31,795 nt of DNA from an uncultured Zetaproteobacteria bacterium (GTDB lineage Bacteria; Pseudomonadota; Zetaproteobacteria; Mariprofundales; Mariprofundaceae): the NCBI GenBank assembly GCA_964534165.1, contig CAZHOU010000001.1, forward strand, positions 1-31,795, in the 5' to 3' direction. The first letter of the stretch is position 1, and each line of letters starts with the position of its first letter. A program made the translations under genes and the position numbers. Under the pieces are notes generated by a model that had not been told where the DNA came from, did not search any database, and saw only the letters and a list, made by a program, of their open reading frames with translations. This document shows positions 14,974-23,907 of the stretch, in pieces.

Positions 14974-17544
14974 ATGAGAAAAGACCCGGTATGCGGCATG
15001 GAGGTTGACGAAAAGAGCAGGTTCCGCCGCACCTTTCGTGGCGCCGAATTCCTGTTCTGCAGCGAACGTTGCCTCGAACGCTTCAGCGAGAATCCAAACG
15101 ACTGGTTGCCCGAGAAATGCGCCTTCGATCCGGTCTGCGGCATGAAGGTGCCTCTCGAATCCACGAACCGCATCGAACATGCCGGACAAAACTATTATTT
15201 CTGTTCGCAGCACTGCATCGACAAGTTCCGTGAAAACCCCGGCGCCTACACGGGCAGGAAACACCCTCCCCGTCACGAACACGAGAAGAAGCCGACACCG
15301 GAAACCACCGCTGCGGAAGGGATGTATTTCTGCCCCATGTGCCCCGGGCAAGAGCAGCAGGGGCCTGGGGTGTGCAAATCGTGCGGCATGGCCCTGGAGC
15401 CGATGCCGGGAGCCCAAACACCCGGGAAGACCGAGTATTTCTGTCCCATGCATCCGGAGATCGTCCGTGATCAGCCCGGGAGTTGCCCGAAGTGCGGGAT
15501 GGCGCTGGAAGCGCGCCTTGTCGCCGTCCAGGAAGAAGAAAATCCGGAATACCGGGATATGCTGCGGCGTTTCAAGCTCGGCGTGGTGCTGATCGTTCCC
15601 CTGTTCCTCCTCGCCCTCGGCAGCGAACTCGCGCCCTCTCACCTGCCCGCATGGCTGTCGCCGAAGCTCGTCCAGTGGCTCGAATTCATCCTTGCCGCTC
15701 CCGTCGTTCTGTGGGGTGGCTGGCCCTTCTTCGTCCGCGGCTGGCAATCGCTCTTCCACCGGCATCTGAACATGTTCACGTTGATCGGCCTGGGCGTGGC
15801 GGTTGCCTTCACCTACAGCCTCGTGGCACTGCTAGCCCCCGATTTGTTCCCGGCGATCATGCGCAAGGCCGGGGGGCGGGTTGACGTTTATTTCGAGGCC
15901 GCGGCCGCCATCACCGTCCTCGTGCTGCTGGGGCAGGTGTTGGAGCTGCGCGCCCGATCCCGCACCAACGAAGCCATCAAGCTCCTGCTCGGCATGGCGC
16001 CGAAAACGGCCCGGCGCGTCCGTGCCGACGGCAGCGAGGAGGATGTGCCGCTGCAAGACGTCCATCCCGGCGATATTCTGCGCATCCGGCCGGGAGAGAA
16101 GGTGCCGGTGGATGGCGTGGTCACCGATGGCGAGAGCCATGTAGATGAATCGATGGTCACCGGCGAGCCGATGCCGGTGGTGAAAAGCGCGGGCGATCCC
16201 CTGATCGGCGCCACGGTCAACGGCAACGGCACGCTGCTCATGCGGGCCGAGAAGGTTGGATCGGAAACCCTGTTGGCGCAGATCGTGGACATGGTCCGCG
16301 AGGCGCAGCGGACCCGGGCCCCGATCCAAAGGCTCGCCGACATGGTGGCCTCCTGGTTCGTGCCCGCGGTCGTGGCGGTCTCCGCCATCACCTTCGTCGT
16401 CTGGTTCGTGGCTGGCCCCGAGCCCCGGCTTGCGCATGCCGTCGTCAACGCGGTCGCCGTTCTGATCATTGCCTGTCCCTGCGCCCTGGGGCTGGCCACA
16501 CCGATCTCGATCATGGTCGGTACCGGCCGCGGCGCCACGGCCGGTGTTCTGATCAAGAACGCCGAGGCCCTGGAGATGATGGAAAAGGTGGATACACTGG
16601 TCGTGGACAAGACCGGCACACTGACCGAGGGCAAACCGCGGCTTACCAGCATCCTTCCGCTCGGTGATTTCAGTGAGGAGGAAATCTTGAAATGGGCCGC
16701 TGGTGTCGAACGCGCCAGCGAGCATCCCCTGGCCACGGCCATACTGGAAGCGGCGCGAATACGCGGCCTCAAACCGGAATCCATCGAAAATTTCAAGGCC
16801 GTCACCGGCAAGGGAGTGCGCGCGAAGGTCGCAGGGCACGAAATCCTGCTGGGCAATGTGGCCCTGATGCGGGAAGCCGGCATCGACACCTCCCCCATGG
16901 AAGCGCTTCGGGGAGAACAAAGACAGGCCGGAGAGACCATCCTCCATCTTGCCGTGGACGGGGAGGCGGCCGCGCAGCTCGGTGTCTCCGACCCGATCAA
17001 GTCCTCGACACCCGCGGCCATCCAGGCCTTACATGCCGAGGGTCTTGAAGTGGTGATGTTGACCGGGGACCGGCACGACACCGCCGCGCTCGTTGCGGAA
17101 AAACTCGGAATCGATCGCGTCATCGCCGAGGTCCTGCCGCAGCAAAAGGCGGAGGTCGTGAAGGAACTGCAACGCGAGGGACGCATCGTGGCCATGGCCG
17201 GAGACGGCATCAACGATGCCCCGGCGCTGGCCGCCGCCCATGTCGGCATCGCCATGGGAACGGGTACGGATGTGGCAATGGAGTCGGCCGGAATCACGCT
17301 GGTCAAGGGGGATCTGAACGGCATCGTCCGAGCCCGCCGCCTATCGCGGGCCGTGATGCGGAACATCCGTCAGAATCTGTTCTTCGCCTTTGTTTACAAC
17401 TCCCTCGGCGTGCCGGTCGCTGCCGGTGTCCTATATCCTTTCTTTGGCGTCCTTCTTTCACCGATCATCGCCGCGGCGGCCATGAGCTTCTCCTCGGTTT
17501 CGGTGATCACCAATGCCCTCAGACTGCGGAAAGTGAGGCTGTAA
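14974..17544 (+). CDS. copA: Cu(I)-translocating P1B-1 ATPase with two YHS and two CPM-type metal-binding domains
   Basis: DPVCGM x2, [37 protein letters not shown] and MSFSS; SD AAGGAG before ATG 14974. Confidence 0.96.
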
Positions 17545-17996
17545 TGCCGGAAACATTCGCTTTTCTCACCCGAACGAAGAGGCGCCGGTCCCTTATGCGT
17601 GAAATGACGACGACCGCTCTGGTCATCGCCACCGCCGACCTGGCCGGCTGCGGCTCCGAGTCCCCCGCCGACAAGATCCATGCAAGAACCACTTCCTTGG
17701 CCGGGGAAATCGTCCCACCGGACCCCATTCGCGGTTCTTCTCTGTTCGCCGCCAACTGCAGCCGCTGCCATGGTGAAAAGGGGATGGGCAGCCGGCTGGG
17801 ACCACCACTCATCCACCGCATCTATGCGCCGACCCGTCCCAGTGATCTGGCCTTCTATCGCGCCATCCTCGGTGGCAGCCGTCAGCACCATTGGTCATTC
17901 GGCAACATGCAGCCGATCGCCGGCGTGAAAGTCTGGGATATCGCACACATCATCGCTTACGTCCGACAACAGCAGCGGCGGGTGGGGATCGAATAA
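17544..17996 (+). CDS. Monoheme cytochrome c lipoprotein of copper-resistance clusters
   Basis: LAGC lipobox, CSRCH heme motif, HHWSFGNM with the likely axial Met; TAATG overlap with copA. True start may be 17595 or 17604. Confidence 0.78.
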   Translation: MPETFAFLTRTKRRRSLMREMTTTALVIATADLAGCGSESPADKIHARTTSLAGEIVPPDPIRGSSLFAANCSRCHGEKGMGSRLGPPLIHRIYAPTRPSDLAFYRAILGGSRQHHWSFGNMQPIAGVKVWDIAHIIAYVRQQQRRVGIE

Positions 17997-18524
17997 ATGG
18001 GAAAGATTGCCTCTCTGTTCATCTTGATGCTGACACTCTCCTCGTGCAGTGCTCCAAGCAACACCGCAATCGATCGAGGAGACATGATGCCGGCCATGAA
18101 GTTGCACGATCTGAACGACCACATCGTTTACAGCCGTGAGCGATTCAGTGGCAAGGTGATCGTTTTCAACGTATGGGCCACATGGTGCCCCCCCTGCCGC
18201 AAGGAAATGCCCGATCTGCAGCGATTGAGTACGATCCTGCCACGGGATCGTTACAGCGTCGTGGCCCTGTCGGTGGACCGGAATCTCGCCGATGTCAAAA
18301 CCTTCGTGCATGAACACGGGCTCCGCTTCCCGGTCTTCTGGGACCAGGGTGGCGCGTCCATCGCAACTCCAAAACTTGGCGTCTTCAAATATCCCGAAAC
18401 CTTCATCGTCAATCGCGAGGGCCGGGTGGTCGTCAAGGTCATCGGAGCCTATCCATGGGCAAGCGATGATACCGTGAAAGCGCTCAAATACATCGCCAAA
18501 TTCGGGAAGCTCCCCCGGGGTTAG
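17997..18524 (+). CDS. TlpA-family thiol-disulfide oxidoreductase lipoprotein
   Basis: LSSC lipobox, NVWATWCPPC, YPETFIVNREG. Confidence 0.9.
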   Translation: MGKIASLFILMLTLSSCSAPSNTAIDRGDMMPAMKLHDLNDHIVYSRERFSGKVIVFNVWATWCPPCRKEMPDLQRLSTILPRDRYSVVALSVDRNLADVKTFVHEHGLRFPVFWDQGGASIATPKLGVFKYPETFIVNREGRVVVKVIGAYPWASDDTVKALKYIAKFGKLPRG

Positions 18525-18526
18525 CT

Positions 18527-19981
18527 GTGCGTGCGCCGCTTGCATGGAAGATCGGCTGCTGGCTCGGCGTAGTGTTCGCACTGGTCGTCTATGTCGGCTG
18601 GCACATGGTGATGGATTTCAATGCTCTTCACCGCGAGGCGCGATTCATCGAAACCGTCAATCATGAAAGCCATTACCTGCATGAGCTGGAGATGGCGCTT
18701 GTCCATACCATCGCTCCGGTGAGATCGTATCTGATCAGTGGCGACTGGCGCCTGCCGGACGCGTTCGCAAGGAAAAGCGCCCACATGCGCCATTTGCTGC
18801 ACGCCTCCGTCTCCGGCCGTGTACGTGATCTCCATCTCGAACGTTCCCTGGCAGAAATCACCGTCCGGGCCAAGCATATCTTCTCGTTGCCGTTTCCCGT
18901 CGGCAACCTGGAGGGCCCGATTCTCATGCGCGAGATCGACGATATCGTCAACCACGTATCGCAGCGACTGTCGGCAAGGCACGACGAGCTGCACCAGGGA
19001 GTGGTAATGTCGATGCGCAAGGTTGGTGTCATGCGCAAGGACATGCGGACGGACTTCCAGCTTTCCATCCTTCTTCTTTTCTTCATTCTGACCGGCATGA
19101 CCATGTGGCTCTACATGCACATGGTCCGCCCGCTCGTGCACCTGCAACGTGAGCTGAAAAAAGTGGGTCGGGGAGAATTCGACATCCATTGCCCCAGACT
19201 GCCGATGGATGAACTGGGAGAACTGGCACAGGCCTGCAATTTGATGGGTGAAGCGCTGCAGACACGGGAGGCCATGTTGAACCATGCACGCAACATGGCC
19301 GCCCATCACGAGAAAATGCGGGCACTGGGACTGATGGCCGCCGGCATCGCCCATGAAGTGGGGAACCCGCTGTCGGCCACTTCGGTTTCCCTCGAAACCG
19401 CCTTGCGCGGCCTGGAGCGGAAGAATTACGAAAAATGCAGAGAGGGGGTGTTGACGGCCCTGGAGGAATTGAAACGTATGGAGAGCATCATCCGCAACAT
19501 CCTCGATTACGGCGCCGTCAACAATGAAACCTCCTTGACCCGCATTGATGCCGTACCGGTGGCTCGGAGCGCCTTCTCCCTGGCGCGCATGTCACCGCAA
19601 CGACGGCAAGTGGATCTCAAATTTGAAATCGAATCCTCAAGCCTGTTCGCCCGTGGCAATGCCTCCATCCTGCGACAGGTCCTGGTCAATCTTCTCCTCA
19701 ACGCCATGGATGCCTGCAGCGAAGAAGGATGCGTCTCGCTCAAGGCCACGCGTCTGGACGGCGGTATCGCTCTGGATGTTTCCGACAACGGCCCCGGTGT
19801 ACCGGAACATATGCGGGAGGAAATTTTCACACCGTTGTTCACCACCAAATGCAGCGGTTCCGGTTCAGGGGTCGGCCTGGCCATCAGCCGCGAGCTGATG
19901 CAACGTATGCACGGAAAACTTGAACTCGTGCACAGCGACGGCCGCGGCAGCCGATTCCGTGCCTGGCTGCCTGCGGGATAA
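18527..19981 (+). CDS. Sensor histidine kinase (2 TM, periplasmic sensor, HAMP, HisKA, HATPase)
   Basis: H-box AHEVGNPL, N-box LLLNAMDA, DNGPGV, FTPLFTTK, GSGVGL; HAMP DELGELA. Confidence 0.92.
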   Translation: MRAPLAWKIGCWLGVVFALVVYVGWHMVMDFNALHREARFIETVNHESHYLHELEMALVHTIAPVRSYLISGDWRLPDAFARKSAHMRHLLHASVSGRVRDLHLERSLAEITVRAKHIFSLPFPVGNLEGPILMREIDDIVNHVSQRLSARHDELHQGVVMSMRKVGVMRKDMRTDFQLSILLLFFILTGMTMWLYMHMVRPLVHLQRELKKVGRGEFDIHCPRLPMDELGELAQACNLMGEALQTREAMLNHARNMAAHHEKMRALGLMAAGIAHEVGNPLSATSVSLETALRGLERKNYEKCREGVLTALEELKRMESIIRNILDYGAVNNETSLTRIDAVPVARSAFSLARMSPQRRQVDLKFEIESSSLFARGNASILRQVLVNLLLNAMDACSEEGCVSLKATRLDGGIALDVSDNGPGVPEHMREEIFTPLFTTKCSGSGSGVGLAISRELMQRMHGKLELVHSDGRGSRFRAWLPAG

Positions 19982-19992
19982 AGGCGGATCGC

Positions 19993-21300
19993 ATGCGTAT
20001 ACTGATCGTCGAAGACGAACGACATATCCGACAAGGCGTCATGAACGTACTCAACGAGGAAGGTTTCGATACCCTGGAAGCCGGCAACCTGCGGAAAGCG
20101 CTCGACATCCTTCGGGCGGGGGATGTGGACGCGATCCTGAGCGATATAAGGCTCCCTGACGGCGACGGTTTCGATCTTTTGCATGCCCTGAAGGCCAGGA
20201 ACGATCCCGTTCCATGCATTCTGATGACCGCCTTCGGCAATCGGGATATCGCCAACCAGGCCCTGAAGGAAGGCGCCTACGACTATATTTCGAAGCCCAT
20301 TCGCTTCGATGAATTGCTGGCGCGGCTGTTTTGCTTGCAAGAAAGGATCGAGCTGGAAAGGCGGCTGCAAAGCATGGCCGCCGCCCTCAAGGATGAAGGC
20401 AAACTCGCTTCGATGGGGAATTCCGCAGCCATGCGACAGGTTCGTTTCCTGGCCGAAAAGGCCGCGGCGGCCCGCTCGCCGGTGCTCATCCGTGGAGAAA
20501 GGGGAGTGGGCAAGCGAAGACTGGCTCACCTGATCCACATGACGAGCGAACGGGCGGCCGAACCGTTTGTGCAGTTGAGCTGCGCCTCCATTCCGGAGGA
20601 ATTGATGGAGCGGGAGCTGTTCGGCTATCGCCGCGGCGCCTTTCCGGGCGCGGACCGCGGATACGAGGGTATCTTGTCCAAGGCCGGGCGCGGCACATTG
20701 TTCTTGGATGAGGTCAGCGAGCTTCCGCGCATCATCCAGGCGGCGTTGTTGCGCGTACTGGACGACGGCTGCTTCCAGCCCTTGGGGGAGACCCGCAGGC
20801 AACCCTTTCAGGCCCGCATTATCACCGCCACCGACAAGGATCTGAGAAACGAGACCCTGCATGGGCGCTTTCGTGAGGACCTGTTTTTCTGCCTCGATGT
20901 GCTGCATATCGATATCCCGCCTCTGCGGGAGCGCCGGGAGGACATCGTGCCGCTGGCGGTGTCTATCCTGGAAAAGCTGGCCGCGGACCGGTCGATCCGG
21001 ATTGCACCCCTGGACGCCCGCCAATGCCTGTGGCTCAAATCGCAGGAATGGCCCGGCAATGTGCGGGAGTTGAGAAACACCCTGGAACGAGCATTGCTCC
21101 TGGCCCGGGACGGCAGGCTGGATCTGCCGCCTCGGAGAATGGTCGAAGGAAGAACGGGAGCGACACTCGCCGAGGCCACGGCGAATTTTGAGCGCAGCCT
21201 GATTCTGCAAACGATCGAGGCCTGCGACGGTGACAAGGAGGAGGCCAGCCGTCGTCTGGGTATCGGCTTGTCCACCCTGTATCGCAAATTGGGAACCTGA
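19993..21300 (+). CDS. NtrC-family response regulator (REC-AAA+-Fis HTH) with degenerate sigma-54 interaction motifs
   Basis: REC with VED, SDIRLPD, SKP; Walker A GERGVGK, GAFPGA, Walker B FLDEV, WPGNVREL; HTH LGIGLSTLYRKL. Confidence 0.9.
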   Translation: MRILIVEDERHIRQGVMNVLNEEGFDTLEAGNLRKALDILRAGDVDAILSDIRLPDGDGFDLLHALKARNDPVPCILMTAFGNRDIANQALKEGAYDYISKPIRFDELLARLFCLQERIELERRLQSMAAALKDEGKLASMGNSAAMRQVRFLAEKAAAARSPVLIRGERGVGKRRLAHLIHMTSERAAEPFVQLSCASIPEELMERELFGYRRGAFPGADRGYEGILSKAGRGTLFLDEVSELPRIIQAALLRVLDDGCFQPLGETRRQPFQARIITATDKDLRNETLHGRFREDLFFCLDVLHIDIPPLRERREDIVPLAVSILEKLAADRSIRIAPLDARQCLWLKSQEWPGNVRELRNTLERALLLARDGRLDLPPRRMVEGRTGATLAEATANFERSLILQTIEACDGDKEEASRRLGIGLSTLYRKLGT

Positions 21301-21349
21301 ATCCCATAATCGGGATTCCCGACCCCGGTATATTTCCCAAATATGGGAA
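21301..21349. promoter_or_regulatory. Tandem palindromic operator-like sites upstream of cyc2
   Basis: ATCCC-N6-GGGAT (21301-21316) and perfect TTCCCA-N4-TGGGAA (21334-21349), starts 33 bp apart. Confidence 0.55.
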
Positions 21350-21390
21350 TAAAGGCCCTTGCACACAAAATCCTTGGAAATCCATCCATC

Positions 21391-21419
21391 TTGTATCTAC
21401 TTGATTAGATTATCATATT
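21391..21419 (+). promoter_or_regulatory. Candidate sigma-70 promoter for cyc2
   Basis: TTGTAT-N17-CATATT, 4/6 match at each hexamer, in an AT-rich patch. Confidence 0.3.
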
Positions 21420-21518
21420 CCACATGTTCACCCACACCGCGGGTGACTGTTGCATATTGCTACATGCCTCGCCATCGACGTTGATCACCCGTCGCTGCGG
21501 CTTCATCGTTTCTTCCAT

Positions 21519-21636
21519 TCTTCCCGGGAGAGGAGGCTTTCCTGCCCGTCTTTCGCCTCGGTCGCGGAAGGAAGCGGGCAGGTCGAAGGAGAGCATCGCT
21601 TGAAAGCGGGAAGACCCATCAAGGCTCCACGGAGCC
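21519..21636 (+). ncRNA. Candidate structured 5' leader of cyc2 (unassigned)
   Basis: Helices 21519-21525/21608-21614, 21541-21556/21564-21582, 21597-21600/21605-21608 and 21623-21627/21632-21636, found by eye. Confidence 0.35.
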
Positions 21637-21665
21637 GAATCAAGAACCTTGGAGGTTAAACACTC

Positions 21666-22940
21666 ATGAGAAAAATTCTGCTTACAACCGCAGCCCTGGC
21701 GCTGGTCCTGGTTTCCGGCGTTGCGCTGTCGCCCAACAAGGCTGAGGCTTTTCCGGCCTTCGCACGCCAGACCGGGGCCGCCTGCCTGAGCTGCCACTTC
21801 CAGACCTTCCCGGCGCTGACCGCCTTCGGACGCGCCTTCATGATGGGCTCGTTCACCGATGTCGGCGATCAGGCCTTGGTCGAGGACGACAACCTCTCCA
21901 TCCCGTCCGTGCTCAACGCCTCGTTCGAGGTGCGTGCCAACGCCACCCATACCAGCAGCTCCGGCGCCGCACCGTCGGATACCACATATTCCATTCCCGC
22001 CGACGAGACACGTTTGTTCGTGGCCGGACGCATCGGAGCGCATACCGGTGCCGTGATCGTGTTCACGGGCGGCAGTGATGCCATGAACATGAAACCAACC
22101 CCCGTCTGGATGCTCTTGAATTCCTGGGATGTGGGCGGCTTCAAACTCGGCCTCGGTGCCCACAAGAGTCCCTGGGGCGGCTCCAACGTGATGGAGGTGT
22201 CGAACGTCTTCGGTCACCGCGGCGACAAACTCGGCGGCCAAGACATCTCCGCCATCTCCAACTCCGGCTTCACCAAGATGACCACCGGTATCGGTACTTG
22301 GGTCGGCAACGATCTCGGCTACCTTCAGTTCTCACTCGTGGCCCCTGCCAACAAGACCCTGGGTGGAACGAACATCGGCCTGAATTTCGGCAAGCTGGTG
22401 CGTGGCGTGGCGACGCTTGATATCGGCGGCTGGGATACCCTGGTCGGCTTCGGCATCGTCACCGGCACCGCCGGCAAGAACAACGCCGGTGCCAGCGGTT
22501 CCACCGGAGCCCGGGTGCCGATGAAGCTGCAATTCGTGGATGCCCAGATGCAGGGCGAGGTCGGCGACATGAGTGTCGGCGTCTACGGCGACTACGCTCA
22601 TGCCAAGGGCAGGACTTCCGCGGCCGGTACGGCCAACTTCTACGGTTCCAATCTCGGAACAAACACCAACGGCAGCAAATTCGACGCCTTCTCGATCCGC
22701 GCCGAAATCGAGCCGATCAACCGCTTCCTGTTCGGTGTCGGCTACGGCTATCAGAAGTTCACGCAACTGGGTAAGAACGATATCACCCAGAAGACCGTGC
22801 ATCTTGCCGCCACCTACAAGGTGTACCAGAACTTCGACATCAACGTGCGCTTCGACAACGAGAAGCTCAGTGACGGGGTAACGCCGAGCAATTCCGTGAC
22901 GACTCGCACGACCGTCTTTGAGGTCGACGCTCTGATGTAA
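21666..22940 (+). CDS. cyc2: Cyc2 outer-membrane cytochrome c-porin fusion (putative Fe(II) oxidase)
   Basis: Signal peptide ending KAEA, then FPAFARQTGAACLSCHFQTFPALTAFGRAF (Cyc2 signature with a single CxxCH), followed by an amphipathic beta-strand region; GGAGG SD at 21651. Confidence 0.9.
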   Translation: MRKILLTTAALALVLVSGVALSPNKAEAFPAFARQTGAACLSCHFQTFPALTAFGRAFMMGSFTDVGDQALVEDDNLSIPSVLNASFEVRANATHTSSSGAAPSDTTYSIPADETRLFVAGRIGAHTGAVIVFTGGSDAMNMKPTPVWMLLNSWDVGGFKLGLGAHKSPWGGSNVMEVSNVFGHRGDKLGGQDISAISNSGFTKMTTGIGTWVGNDLGYLQFSLVAPANKTLGGTNIGLNFGKLVRGVATLDIGGWDTLVGFGIVTGTAGKNNAGASGSTGARVPMKLQFVDAQMQGEVGDMSVGVYGDYAHAKGRTSAAGTANFYGSNLGTNTNGSKFDAFSIRAEIEPINRFLFGVGYGYQKFTQLGKNDITQKTVHLAATYKVYQNFDINVRFDNEKLSDGVTPSNSVTTRTTVFEVDALM

Positions 22941-23061: not shown

Positions 23062-23907
23062 ATGTTGAACAATCATTCACCCATGAAAACCTTCCTGTCT
23101 CTGGGAATCGCCATCCTCCTTCCCGTCACGGCCTACGCAGCCAACGGTGCCAATTTCGTTCTCTACAACCATCACATGGCCGAAGTGGGCGAAAAAGAGC
23201 TGATGCTGATGAACGATATCGGCCAATTGCCGGATGGAACCCGATACACAGCCCAGATGCTCGAATTCGAACTGGGGATCACGGCGCAATGGACCACGGA
23301 GTTCATGATCGAGGGACAGAACACCTCCGGCCAGGGCGGCTACAACTTCACCGGTTTCCGCTGGGAGAACCGCTATCGCGTTTTCGATCGCGAGGTGACT
23401 TTAAACCCGGTTCTGTATCTCGAATACGAAGACCTGAGTTCGGACACCTTGTACCTGATGGAGGTGAGCGGACGCGAAGACGCAACCAGAAGGGTCAAAT
23501 CGAGGCCACGGGAGCGGGTCCTGGAGACGAGACTGATCCTGTCCCAGAACGTGGGCAAGCGACTCAACATCGCCGCCAACTGGCTGAATGAGAGCGATCT
23601 TGATACCGGCGTCACCGCCTTCGGCTACGCAGTCGGCATCAACTTCAGGCTCGACACTCCGGTTCTCCTTCCGGGTAGGGAGGATGAAGACGGGGATGCA
23701 GGCGTCGTGCTCGGACTCGAACTCTTCGGCGGCGCGGGTGACGCAGACAAGGGTCCGACCCTGGACGGGGCCGTCACCCAGCACTACCTGGCGCCGAACC
23801 TGCTGTTGCAGGGACGACATGGCTGGAAACTGAAATTCGGCGGCGCCATCGGGCTGACCAATGTCAGCCAGGACCTCTTCCGCATGGCCGTGGCCTACGA
23901 GTTCTGA
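23062..23907 (+). CDS. Putative outer-membrane beta-barrel protein (DUF6662-like)
   Basis: Signal peptide (AYA|A), alternating beta-strand pattern, NPVLYLEYED, C-terminal YEF (BamA-type terminal Phe). Start 23062 or 23083; family name tentative. Confidence 0.72.
   Translation: MLNNHSPMKTFLSLGIAILLPVTAYAANGANFVLYNHHMAEVGEKELMLMNDIGQLPDGTRYTAQMLEFELGITAQWTTEFMIEGQNTSGQGGYNFTGFRWENRYRVFDREVTLNPVLYLEYEDLSSDTLYLMEVSGREDATRRVKSRPRERVLETRLILSQNVGKRLNIAANWLNESDLDTGVTAFGYAVGINFRLDTPVLLPGREDEDGDAGVVLGLELFGGAGDADKGPTLDGAVTQHYLAPNLLLQGRHGWKLKFGGAIGLTNVSQDLFRMAVAYEF

Follow-up and report, generated by a model that had tools for sequence, protein, structure and literature searches.

A probable sigma-54-independent NtrC-family regulator upstream of a cyc2-like gene in a sub-lineage of the Mariprofundaceae

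A stretch of 31,795 nucleotides from an uncultured Zetaproteobacteria bacterium of the family Mariprofundaceae (assembly GCA_964534165.1, contig CAZHOU010000001.1; hereafter the window) carries, on the forward strand, a gene for a 435-residue NtrC-family response regulator (19993..21300) that is followed, after a spacer of 365 bp, by a cyc2-like gene (21666..22940). Domain searches, motif mapping and comparison with related loci indicate that this regulator is probably a phosphorylation-dependent, sigma-54-independent (“atypical”) enhancer-binding protein (EBP) that acts on a cyc2 promoter not of the sigma-54 type. Cyc2 is a marker gene product and the candidate iron oxidase of neutrophilic iron-oxidising bacteria. 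An earlier reading of the window, made from its letters only (the sequence-only reading), had proposed a repurposed sigma-54-independent regulator with palindromes before cyc2, and our comparison lends support to this proposal: tandem sites occur in about 30 loci, a sigma-54 element precedes cyc2 in 20/21 relatives versus 0/10 loci of the regulator's own group, the altered proteins form a single clade under purifying selection, and rpoN is kept. The assembly consists of 1.74 Mb in 259 contigs, with about 90% completeness and 62% GC.

The regulator shows the complete domain order of the NtrC family, with a receiver domain at residues 3-112 (Response_reg, PF00072, 4.5e-29), an AAA+ domain at residues 141-306 (Sigma54_activat, PF00158, E 3.5e-55), a lid at residues 312-377 (AAA_lid_14, PF25601, 1.1e-16) and a Fis-type DNA-binding domain at residues 398-433 (HTH_8, PF02954, 2.6e-11; 21184..21291, + strand). 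The receiver residues E8/D9, D51, T79 and K101 are conserved, and the predicted phospho-acceptor Asp51 (codon 20143..20145) lies in the block LSDIRLPDGDG, which is kept in 34/34 of the loci described below. The recognition helix RLGIGLSTLYRKL of the HTH domain is intact and identical in all groups of relatives. Both ends of the protein are, as had been noted earlier, apparently sound.

The centre of the protein presents a different picture. We mapped its motifs by HMMER alignment to Aquifex NtrC1 (1ny5); since the offset is constant at -1 through the motif region, Pro218 falls on NtrC1 T217, Asp281 on N280 and Cys300 on R299. The L1 loop (residues 215-220, 20635..20652) reads GAFPGA instead of GAFTGA (GGC GCC TTT CCG GGC GCG), sensor I carries Asp281 (20833..20835) in place of Asn within TATD (ACC GCC ACC GAC), and Cys300 (20890..20892, within FFCL, TTT TTC TGC CTC) occupies the position of the arginine finger, NtrC1 R299 or PspF R168. 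Thus, the GAFPGA, ATD and DLFFCL motifs and the lost finger of the sequence-only reading are borne out by both the DNA and the alignment. In EBPs, the R299/R168 finger makes its contact with the gamma-phosphate in trans, and activation is lost in most GAFTGA mutants (PMC7175178). The window copy retains Lys174 of Walker A (GERGVGKRRLA, 20494..20526), Asp239-Glu240 of Walker B (20707..20712), R294 and sensor II (GNVREL); the Walker A lysine is followed by Arg-Arg, as opposed to Glu in canonical EBPs and Gly in the sister groups.

A sigma-54 activator is defined by several features, of which the genome provides rpoN; the L1 Thr/Ser and the trans arginine finger are absent from the protein, and its target has no -24/-12 promoter. 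The protein scores below the curated cut-off of every NCBIfam equivalog, including NtrC (315 vs 558.6), AtoC (313.8 vs 714) and NtrX (304.5 vs 600), and its nearest solved structures are the Aquifex NtrC-family regulators 4l4u (E 6.6e-79), NtrC4 (3dzd) and NtrC1 (1ny5, E 3.9e-74).

A protein search recovered about 100 family members, down to approximately 46% identity (at least 381 bits), below which came generic NtrC/AtoC proteins at no more than 337 bits; a metagenome scan for close relatives returned only generic NtrC proteins with 34-42% identity. DNA was available for 34 loci: species-representative genomes of the family supplied 30, and exact-protein look-ups the other four, all of group A. 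The motifs sort these loci into three groups. Group C, which includes Mariprofundus ferrooxydans, is canonical, with GAFTGA, an arginine finger and a Walker A of the GETGVGKG type; group B differs from it in its GAFSGA loop. Group A, to which the window belongs, comprises ten loci (two of them near-duplicates) with at least 69% identity to the window protein and a Walker A of the form GE(R/K)GVGKRR. Its finger residue is Cys in 10/10 loci, versus Arg in 24/24 others, and its L1 loop reads GAFPGA in six loci, GAIPGT in two, and GALPGT and GAFSDA in one each. Additionally, the Walker B Asp is replaced by Asn or His in 5/10 members, and the sensor I Asn by Asp in 4/10. All 24 loci outside group A keep the L1, finger, Walker B and sensor I motifs. 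Because they are common to ten loci, which form one clade, the substitutions are not an artefact of this assembly, a possibility that the sequence-only reading had left standing as a potential refutation. Its set of substitutions is not uniform across the clade, the change from Arg to Cys being clade-wide and the ATD motif confined to four of the ten loci.

A maximum-likelihood tree, built with a quick method and with five generic NtrC proteins as its root, places all group A sequences in one clade (SH-aLRT 99), nested inside the GAFSGA group. The sister of this clade is locus L018, which has GAFSGA, an arginine finger and a sigma-54 element, and GAFTGA is the outermost state. The path of change therefore leads from GAFTGA to GAFSGA and then to loss of the finger and of Thr/Ser, and as read from this tree the motif loss is one derived event in one clade. 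Two genus labels, g16 (G016/G030) and g22 (G083/G035/G066/G072), include both A-type and B-type cassettes, in different species, which points to cassette transfer or replacement between close relatives. The A-type and B-type cassettes of these species also have different cyc2 sequence types, ARQTGAACLSCH and ARKYGMSCNSCH, respectively.

Despite its altered motifs, the regulator is maintained by purifying selection (dN/dS around 0.1). Pairwise ratios within group A were 0.10 for the receiver domain, 0.11 for AAA+, 0.14 for the lid and 0.11 for the HTH domain, with similar values in groups B and C, and the reading frame is intact in all ten loci. We considered relaxed selection across the whole AAA+ domain and rejected it, since its ratio of 0.11 is that of the sister groups; selection is relaxed only where the motifs lie, at positions that differ among clade members.

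The presumed binding sites of the regulator are two related palindromes located between its stop codon and cyc2. Site 1, ATCCCATAATCGGGAT (21301-21316), starts one base past the stop and is imperfect at an inner position, and site 2, TTCCCAAATATGGGAA (21334-21349), is perfect; their centres lie 33 bp apart, confirming the positions and distance given in the sequence-only reading. A scan of the 1.74-Mb genome found the exact form TTCCCA-N4-TGGGAA only once, at site 2, against a composition-based chance expectation of about 0.07, and cyc2 is hence the only visible target. Tandem TTCyC-N6-GrGAA sites occur at or just after the regulator stop in all groups, with centres 31 bp apart in the loci outside group A, and precede cyc2 in about 30 orthologous cassettes. 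In four loci (L021, L031, L032 and L035) a gene of about 300 codons intervenes between regulator and cyc2, and here a second palindromic site (two copies in L031 and L035) and a TTTCT-type element stand directly before cyc2. Since the sites recur in front of cyc2 past the inserted gene, the palindromes belong to promoters and not to the end of the regulator gene. An intervening gene is also found in L034; in L031, L032, L034 and L035 this gene has palindromes of its own and a -24/-12 element with a -12 box of the TGC type.

These data bear on the idea that the regulator is a decaying relic whose palindromes do no more than terminate transcription of the kinase-regulator operon. The degeneracy of several catalytic motifs, together with palindromes that begin one base past the stop codon, would agree with it. 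Yet dN/dS is close to 0.1 in every domain, with intact frames in ten loci, and the palindromes are conserved in sequence (TTCyC/GrGAA), not in pairing alone, and come in pairs 31-33 bp apart. Moreover, they are followed by no T-run, a terminator scan was empty, and sites recur far from the regulator stop, directly before cyc2. We consequently find this idea hardly credible.

To compare the cyc2 promoters, we searched the intergenic regions with the pattern TGGC-N7-T[TG][GT]C[TA], taking shuffled sequences as expectation. A -24/-12-like element precedes cyc2 in 20/21 loci outside group A, at 52-94 bp from the ATG (0.067 expected after shuffling), whereas the same search yielded none in the ten group A regions. 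The consensus of the elements is TGGCAy-N5-TTTCT, with a near-invariant -24 box tTGGCAy; the -12 box is TTTCT in 17/21 loci, TTTCA in one more and TTGCT in two, and the 21st locus reads TGGCATCATGCTTGTT instead. Site 2 lies 104-108 bp upstream of the -24 box, and in many loci the interval contains an IHF-like YAA-N4-TTGATW, the IHF consensus reversed. The inserted gene of L031, L032 and L035 is itself preceded by a -24/-12 element with a TGC-type -12 box (TTGCA, GTGCT and CTGCA; for example, TGGCATGATTGTTGCA), and the best candidate for that of L021 is weaker (TGGCACAGAAGGTGTT). The near-invariant -24 box and its spacing, together with the tandem sites, the IHF-like site and the intact motifs of the EBPs, suggest that cyc2 of these relatives depends on sigma-54.

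In the window, the region 21301-21665 contains no sigma-54 element: the best weighted score was 15 of 20.5, for CGGAAGGAAGCGGGCA, which has neither TGGCA nor TTGC/TTTC. This weighted scan and the comparison across the clade both agree with the earlier failure to find a -24/-12 element before cyc2. Elsewhere in this 62% GC genome, TGGCAy-N5-TTGCW has two matches and TGGCAy-N5-TTTCW six, most of them in or between ambiguous open reading frames.

Group A has a candidate promoter of another type in place of the element. Its intergenic regions, of 352-391 bp, are about 140 bp longer than those of the other loci, and all ten contain TTGA(C/T), a spacer of exactly 17 bp and variable sequence, and CA(G/T)nnT. 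In the window, this predicted non-sigma-54 promoter spans 21481..21509 (+), with a -35 box TTGATC (21481-21486), the 17-bp spacer and a -10 box CATCGT (21504-21509), and the predicted cyc2 transcription start is near 21516. In the CAGTGT-like -10 box of the group, the A in second place and the T in sixth never vary. Measured from its centre, site 2 lies 139.5-141.5 bp from the -35 box in 10/10 loci, across an interval of poorly conserved sequence. A strict sigma-70 and terminator scan of 21200-21720 returned no matches, so that the proposal rests on conservation and not on consensus strength. The weak sigma-70 candidate mentioned in the sequence-only reading is evidently TTGTAT (21391-21396), 17 bp and CATATT (21414-21419). 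This pair exists at 21391..21419 (+), yet the nine related loci do not conserve it, and the pair at 21481-21509 makes a better candidate.

Loss of sigma-54 from the cell is not the explanation for this change, because rpoN is kept in group A genomes: the check for rpoN that the sequence-only reading had called for located it on contig C25 (Sigma54_DBD, 6.2e-57), and it was also found in all five other group A genomes tested. Each group A genome gave a single regulator match, and the group A assemblies show no second cassette copy that might retain sigma-54 control; in the genome of the window, a search for a second cyc2 cassette gave only a weak 37-residue match to the haem region, on contig C6. 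This genome has five full EBP genes, of which two encode GAFTGA, one GAFAGA and one an NtrX-like GAFPGA protein, the fifth being the window regulator. The NtrX-like protein (contig C56:~2780-4145; L005 1078-2442) is a second atypical EBP, with Walker B LFLEEV and Walker A GEHGTGKA; its best NCBIfam match is NtrX, at 439 bits for a cut-off of 600, and its gene lies between an NtrY-like kinase gene and trkA. The GAFAGA protein (contig C11:10011-10511) has otherwise canonical Walker and finger motifs.

The presence of rpoN and of two canonical EBPs allows for a regulator that is still a sigma-54 activator, either because a proline loop and a fingerless ring are tolerated or because mixed rings form with another EBP that contributes arginine fingers and GAFTGA loops, with a promoter too divergent to be recognised. 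The intact Walker A Lys, Walker B DE and sensor II of the window copy, and the already unusual -12 box of the relatives' sigma-54 elements, would fit such a protein. We nevertheless regard it as very unlikely, since a TGGCA-type -24 box is found in 0/10 group A regions versus 20/21 relatives and the promoter-like TTGAC-17-CAnnnT is conserved in its stead. Likewise, the Walker B Asp is lost in 5/10 members and L1 varies freely, as expected if neither hydrolysis nor sigma-54 contact were under selection.

A 17-bp dyad, TGTTGCATATTGCTACA (21448..21464), lies near -61 of the predicted promoter. Its family form is TGTnnCA-N3-TGnnACA, and its centre is 25-26 bp upstream of the -35 box in 10/10 group A loci, a class-I-like position. 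The layout of the dyad resembles that of enteric NtrC sites, TGCACC-N5-GGTGCA. Two other readings of the dyad were examined. As a sigma-54 element on the reverse strand (TGGCAT...), it was rejected, since GG and GC are not correctly spaced and the element would point away from cyc2; as an RNA hairpin, it was judged unlikely, with only 4-6 of 7 positions pairing across loci.

The conservation of this dyad in all ten loci, at a class-I-like position, raises the alternative that a factor bound there drives the new promoter and that the regulator is a repressor, an anti-activator or an architectural protein at its old sites, which lie about 140 bp from the -35 box. There is a precedent in NtrX, an atypical EBP that is a reported repressor, at its own promoter (PMC6158489). 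A roadblock or repressor, however, usually overlaps the promoter, and across ten diverged loci the interval between site 2 and the -35 box varies by no more than ±1 bp, which argues for direct, phase-dependent communication with the promoter complex. On balance, we consider this alternative unlikely.

Downstream of the predicted start, the ten group A loci share a conserved structured cyc2 leader of about 150 nt (21510..21665, +), identified with RNAalifold and pair counts. The predicted fold is multi-helix, with 36 pairs; 87.8% of cells are paired, versus 37-55% with slid partners. Twelve pairs have changed on both sides in a compensatory manner, and none of 500 shuffles reached the observed covariation. 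The CU-rich 5' tracts of the leader can pair with an internal GGGGAGG-like tract or with the Shine-Dalgarno sequence GGAGG (21651-21655), and the leader could be a translational switch. Inclusion of the 5'-most helix in the RNA depends on the true transcription start, since the predicted start and the beginning of this helix are only a few bases apart. The leader is single-copy in the genome, and 21250-21720 matched no credible family in Rfam, the only hit being a chance miRNA match with E 0.56.

We propose the following course of events for the regulator as a probable sigma-54-independent EBP. In the ancestral state, still that of most relatives, the phosphorylated EBP would bind two TTCyC-N6-GrGAA palindromes 31 bp apart, loop over the IHF-like site and, through ATP hydrolysis, open the sigma-54 promoter, TGGCAy-N5-TTTCT, which lies some 105 bp downstream. 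The loss of the arginine finger (R to C) and of the L1 Thr/Ser, on the branch leading to group A, would have ended the use of sigma-54 and of ATP hydrolysis, after which Walker B and sensor I would have been free to drift. At cyc2, the sigma-54 promoter and its short leader would have given way to a TTGAC-17-CAGTGT-type promoter, with an operator near -61 and a long leader able to sequester the Shine-Dalgarno sequence. The present protein would still sense phosphorylation, its receiver domain being intact, and bind the same palindromes, HTH domain and sites being intact; the AAA+ fold would still be needed, probably for oligomerisation and perhaps for nucleotide binding. The retained operator, the retained receiver and HTH domains and the nearly constant spacing argue that the regulator acts on the new promoter from the old sites. 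From positions near -175 and -208, it would modulate a promoter of the sigma-70 family with no remodelling powered by ATP; its most likely role would be that of a looping activator or co-activator. A more specific version of this proposal is possible, and we put it forward only tentatively: an ATPase-dead, phosphorylation-gated looping co-activator held in fixed helical phase by the 140-bp interval, assisted by a second factor at -61, on a sigma-70-family promoter with a leader that masks the Shine-Dalgarno sequence.

Several points weigh against a sigma-54-independent EBP acting in this way. DNA binding, the loss of ATPase activity and of sigma-54 contact, the identity and sigma factor of the new promoter, and the sign of regulation are all features that we infer. 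The -10 box is poor (CATCGT in the window), with the strict sigma-70 scan of 21200-21720 empty, and the start site of cyc2 is predicted, as is its sigma factor. For a sigma-70 promoter, sites around -175 and -208 are remote, and the -61 dyad could serve another protein as the true activator, in which case the NtrC-type regulator would modulate or repress. Since the window copy keeps the Walker A Lys, Walker B DE, R294 and sensor II, it may still bind nucleotide and have residual hydrolysis. The sigma-54 dependence of the relatives is likewise deduced, from elements in which the -12 box is TTTCT and not the canonical TTGCW. Finally, motif loss and promoter change share one branch and so represent a single event, not repeated co-variation.

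With an EBP fold, a sigma-54 contact loop of the apparently non-functional type and non-consensus ATPase motifs, the window protein corresponds to the description of an atypical EBP. Atypical EBPs with altered GAFTGA and Walker B motifs act with sigma-70 (PMC6158489), and the class comprises TyrR, HupR, PhhR, HsfA, NtrX, VpsR and the NtrC proteins of Rhodobacter capsulatus and Caulobacter. NtrC and HupR of R. capsulatus are similar to the group A regulator in having REC, AAA+ and HTH domains and, if the proposal holds, in being phosphorylation-dependent, in their non-functional sigma-54 loop and in using sigma-70-type promoters. They act at a distance from tandem upstream sites. In R. capsulatus and Caulobacter NtrC, however, the L1 loop is deleted, whereas in group A the loop is of full length with point substitutions and the finger is lost as well. 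The targets also differ, being nitrogen and hydrogenase genes for R. capsulatus NtrC and HupR and an iron-oxidase gene for group A. Unlike those two proteins, the group A regulator has orthologues, apparently sigma-54-dependent, that persist in sister lineages.

VpsR of Vibrio cholerae also works without a functional GAFTGA, with N/D for D/E in Walker B, and with sigma-70 RNA polymerase (PMC6158489); its Walker B change parallels the Asn or His at the Walker B Asp in 5/10 group A members. VpsR needs cyclic di-GMP and binds near the promoter, whereas the group A sites lie about 140 bp upstream of the -35 box and the gene for the cognate kinase adjoins. NtrX of Brucella and Caulobacter is, like the window protein, an NtrC-family response regulator without a functional GAFTGA, held to be sigma-54-independent. 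The window protein, however, reaches only 304.5 bits of the NtrX cut-off of 600, a better NtrX-like gene exists elsewhere in the genome, and context and target are different. Canonical NtrC/NtrC1 EBPs share the domain order with the window protein, and tandem dyads and an IHF-like site with the sister lineages, but the window protein lacks the arginine finger and the L1 Thr, and its target lacks a sigma-54 promoter.

A switch in the control of one gene is described for pilE of Neisseria, which is reported to depend on RpoN, IHF and the NtrC-type activator Npa in commensals and on RpoD and IHF in pathogens (PMC6528607). This evolutionary switch between sigma-54- and sigma-70-type control parallels the one proposed for cyc2. 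In pathogenic Neisseria, sigma-54 itself is defunct. Group A, by contrast, keeps rpoN and other EBPs, and has retained the activator and its sites under purifying selection.

The neighbouring genes are consistent with a dedicated regulatory cassette. Immediately upstream of the regulator, a sensor histidine kinase with HAMP, HisKA and HATPase_c domains (18527..19981, +), the presumed cognate partner, ends 11 bp before the regulator reading frame, and a kinase occupies this position in nearly all family loci. The order kinase-regulator-cyc2 is found across the Mariprofundaceae, in essentially all family loci with a long enough flank. The best explanation is that the kinase and regulator form a pair dedicated to the adjacent cyc2 throughout the family. 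The periplasmic domain of the kinase, of about 150 residues between two transmembrane helices, is rich in His and Met and lacks Cys, which suggests that the kinase input was unaltered when the output was rewired; it is compatible with metal sensing, and the signal is possibly metal-related. Among loci in which both helices were found, this domain (window 18600-19065 and relatives) has 6-13 His, 7-14 Met and 0 Cys, alike in groups A, B and C. Further 5', the order of DsbD-like, cytochrome c and TlpA-like thioredoxin genes seen in the window (17544-19981, kinase included) is kept in the group A loci L122-L124.

The presumed target (21666..22940, +) encodes a cyc2-like fused cytochrome-porin of 424 residues, with a signal-like N-terminus (MRKILL...), a single CLSCH haem motif and a long C-terminal region, and in relatives the product of the gene that follows the regulator is 57-75% identical to it. 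The protein, a putative Cyc2, matched no model in Pfam or NCBIfam. A gene for a 281-residue signal-peptide protein lies 3' of cyc2 (23062-23907). Its product is a weak homologue of the product of an L034 gene, with 35% identity over 72 residues; given the palindromes and the TGC-type -24/-12 element that belong to the intervening gene of L031, L032, L034 and L035, it may be part of the same regulon.

In a literature search with most subscription journals outside its reach, we found no report that connects the cyc2 gene of Zetaproteobacteria with sigma-54, with an NtrC-type regulator or with a two-component system of its own. The class of atypical EBPs is known; what is new is the cyc2 target, the co-evolved promoter, a family-wide model for cyc2 and the coexistence of both cassette types in sister lineages. 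The regulator described here is the first concrete candidate for the control of cyc2. It comes with a testable model for the family, in which a His/Met-rich sensor kinase, an NtrC-type regulator, tandem palindromes, an IHF-like site and a sigma-54 promoter would act together, and with an identified sub-lineage in which the same cassette has probably been converted to sigma-54-independent control. For the study of sigma-54, group A and its sisters offer “before” and “after” proteins that are close relatives and are set apart by point substitutions, not by loop deletions, together with a matching change of promoter. If the more specific version of our proposal is true, the cassette would represent a natural and datable rewiring of an EBP along with its target promoter, with living before and after states that show how atypical EBPs originate, and would place the iron oxidase of these bacteria under three stacked controls.

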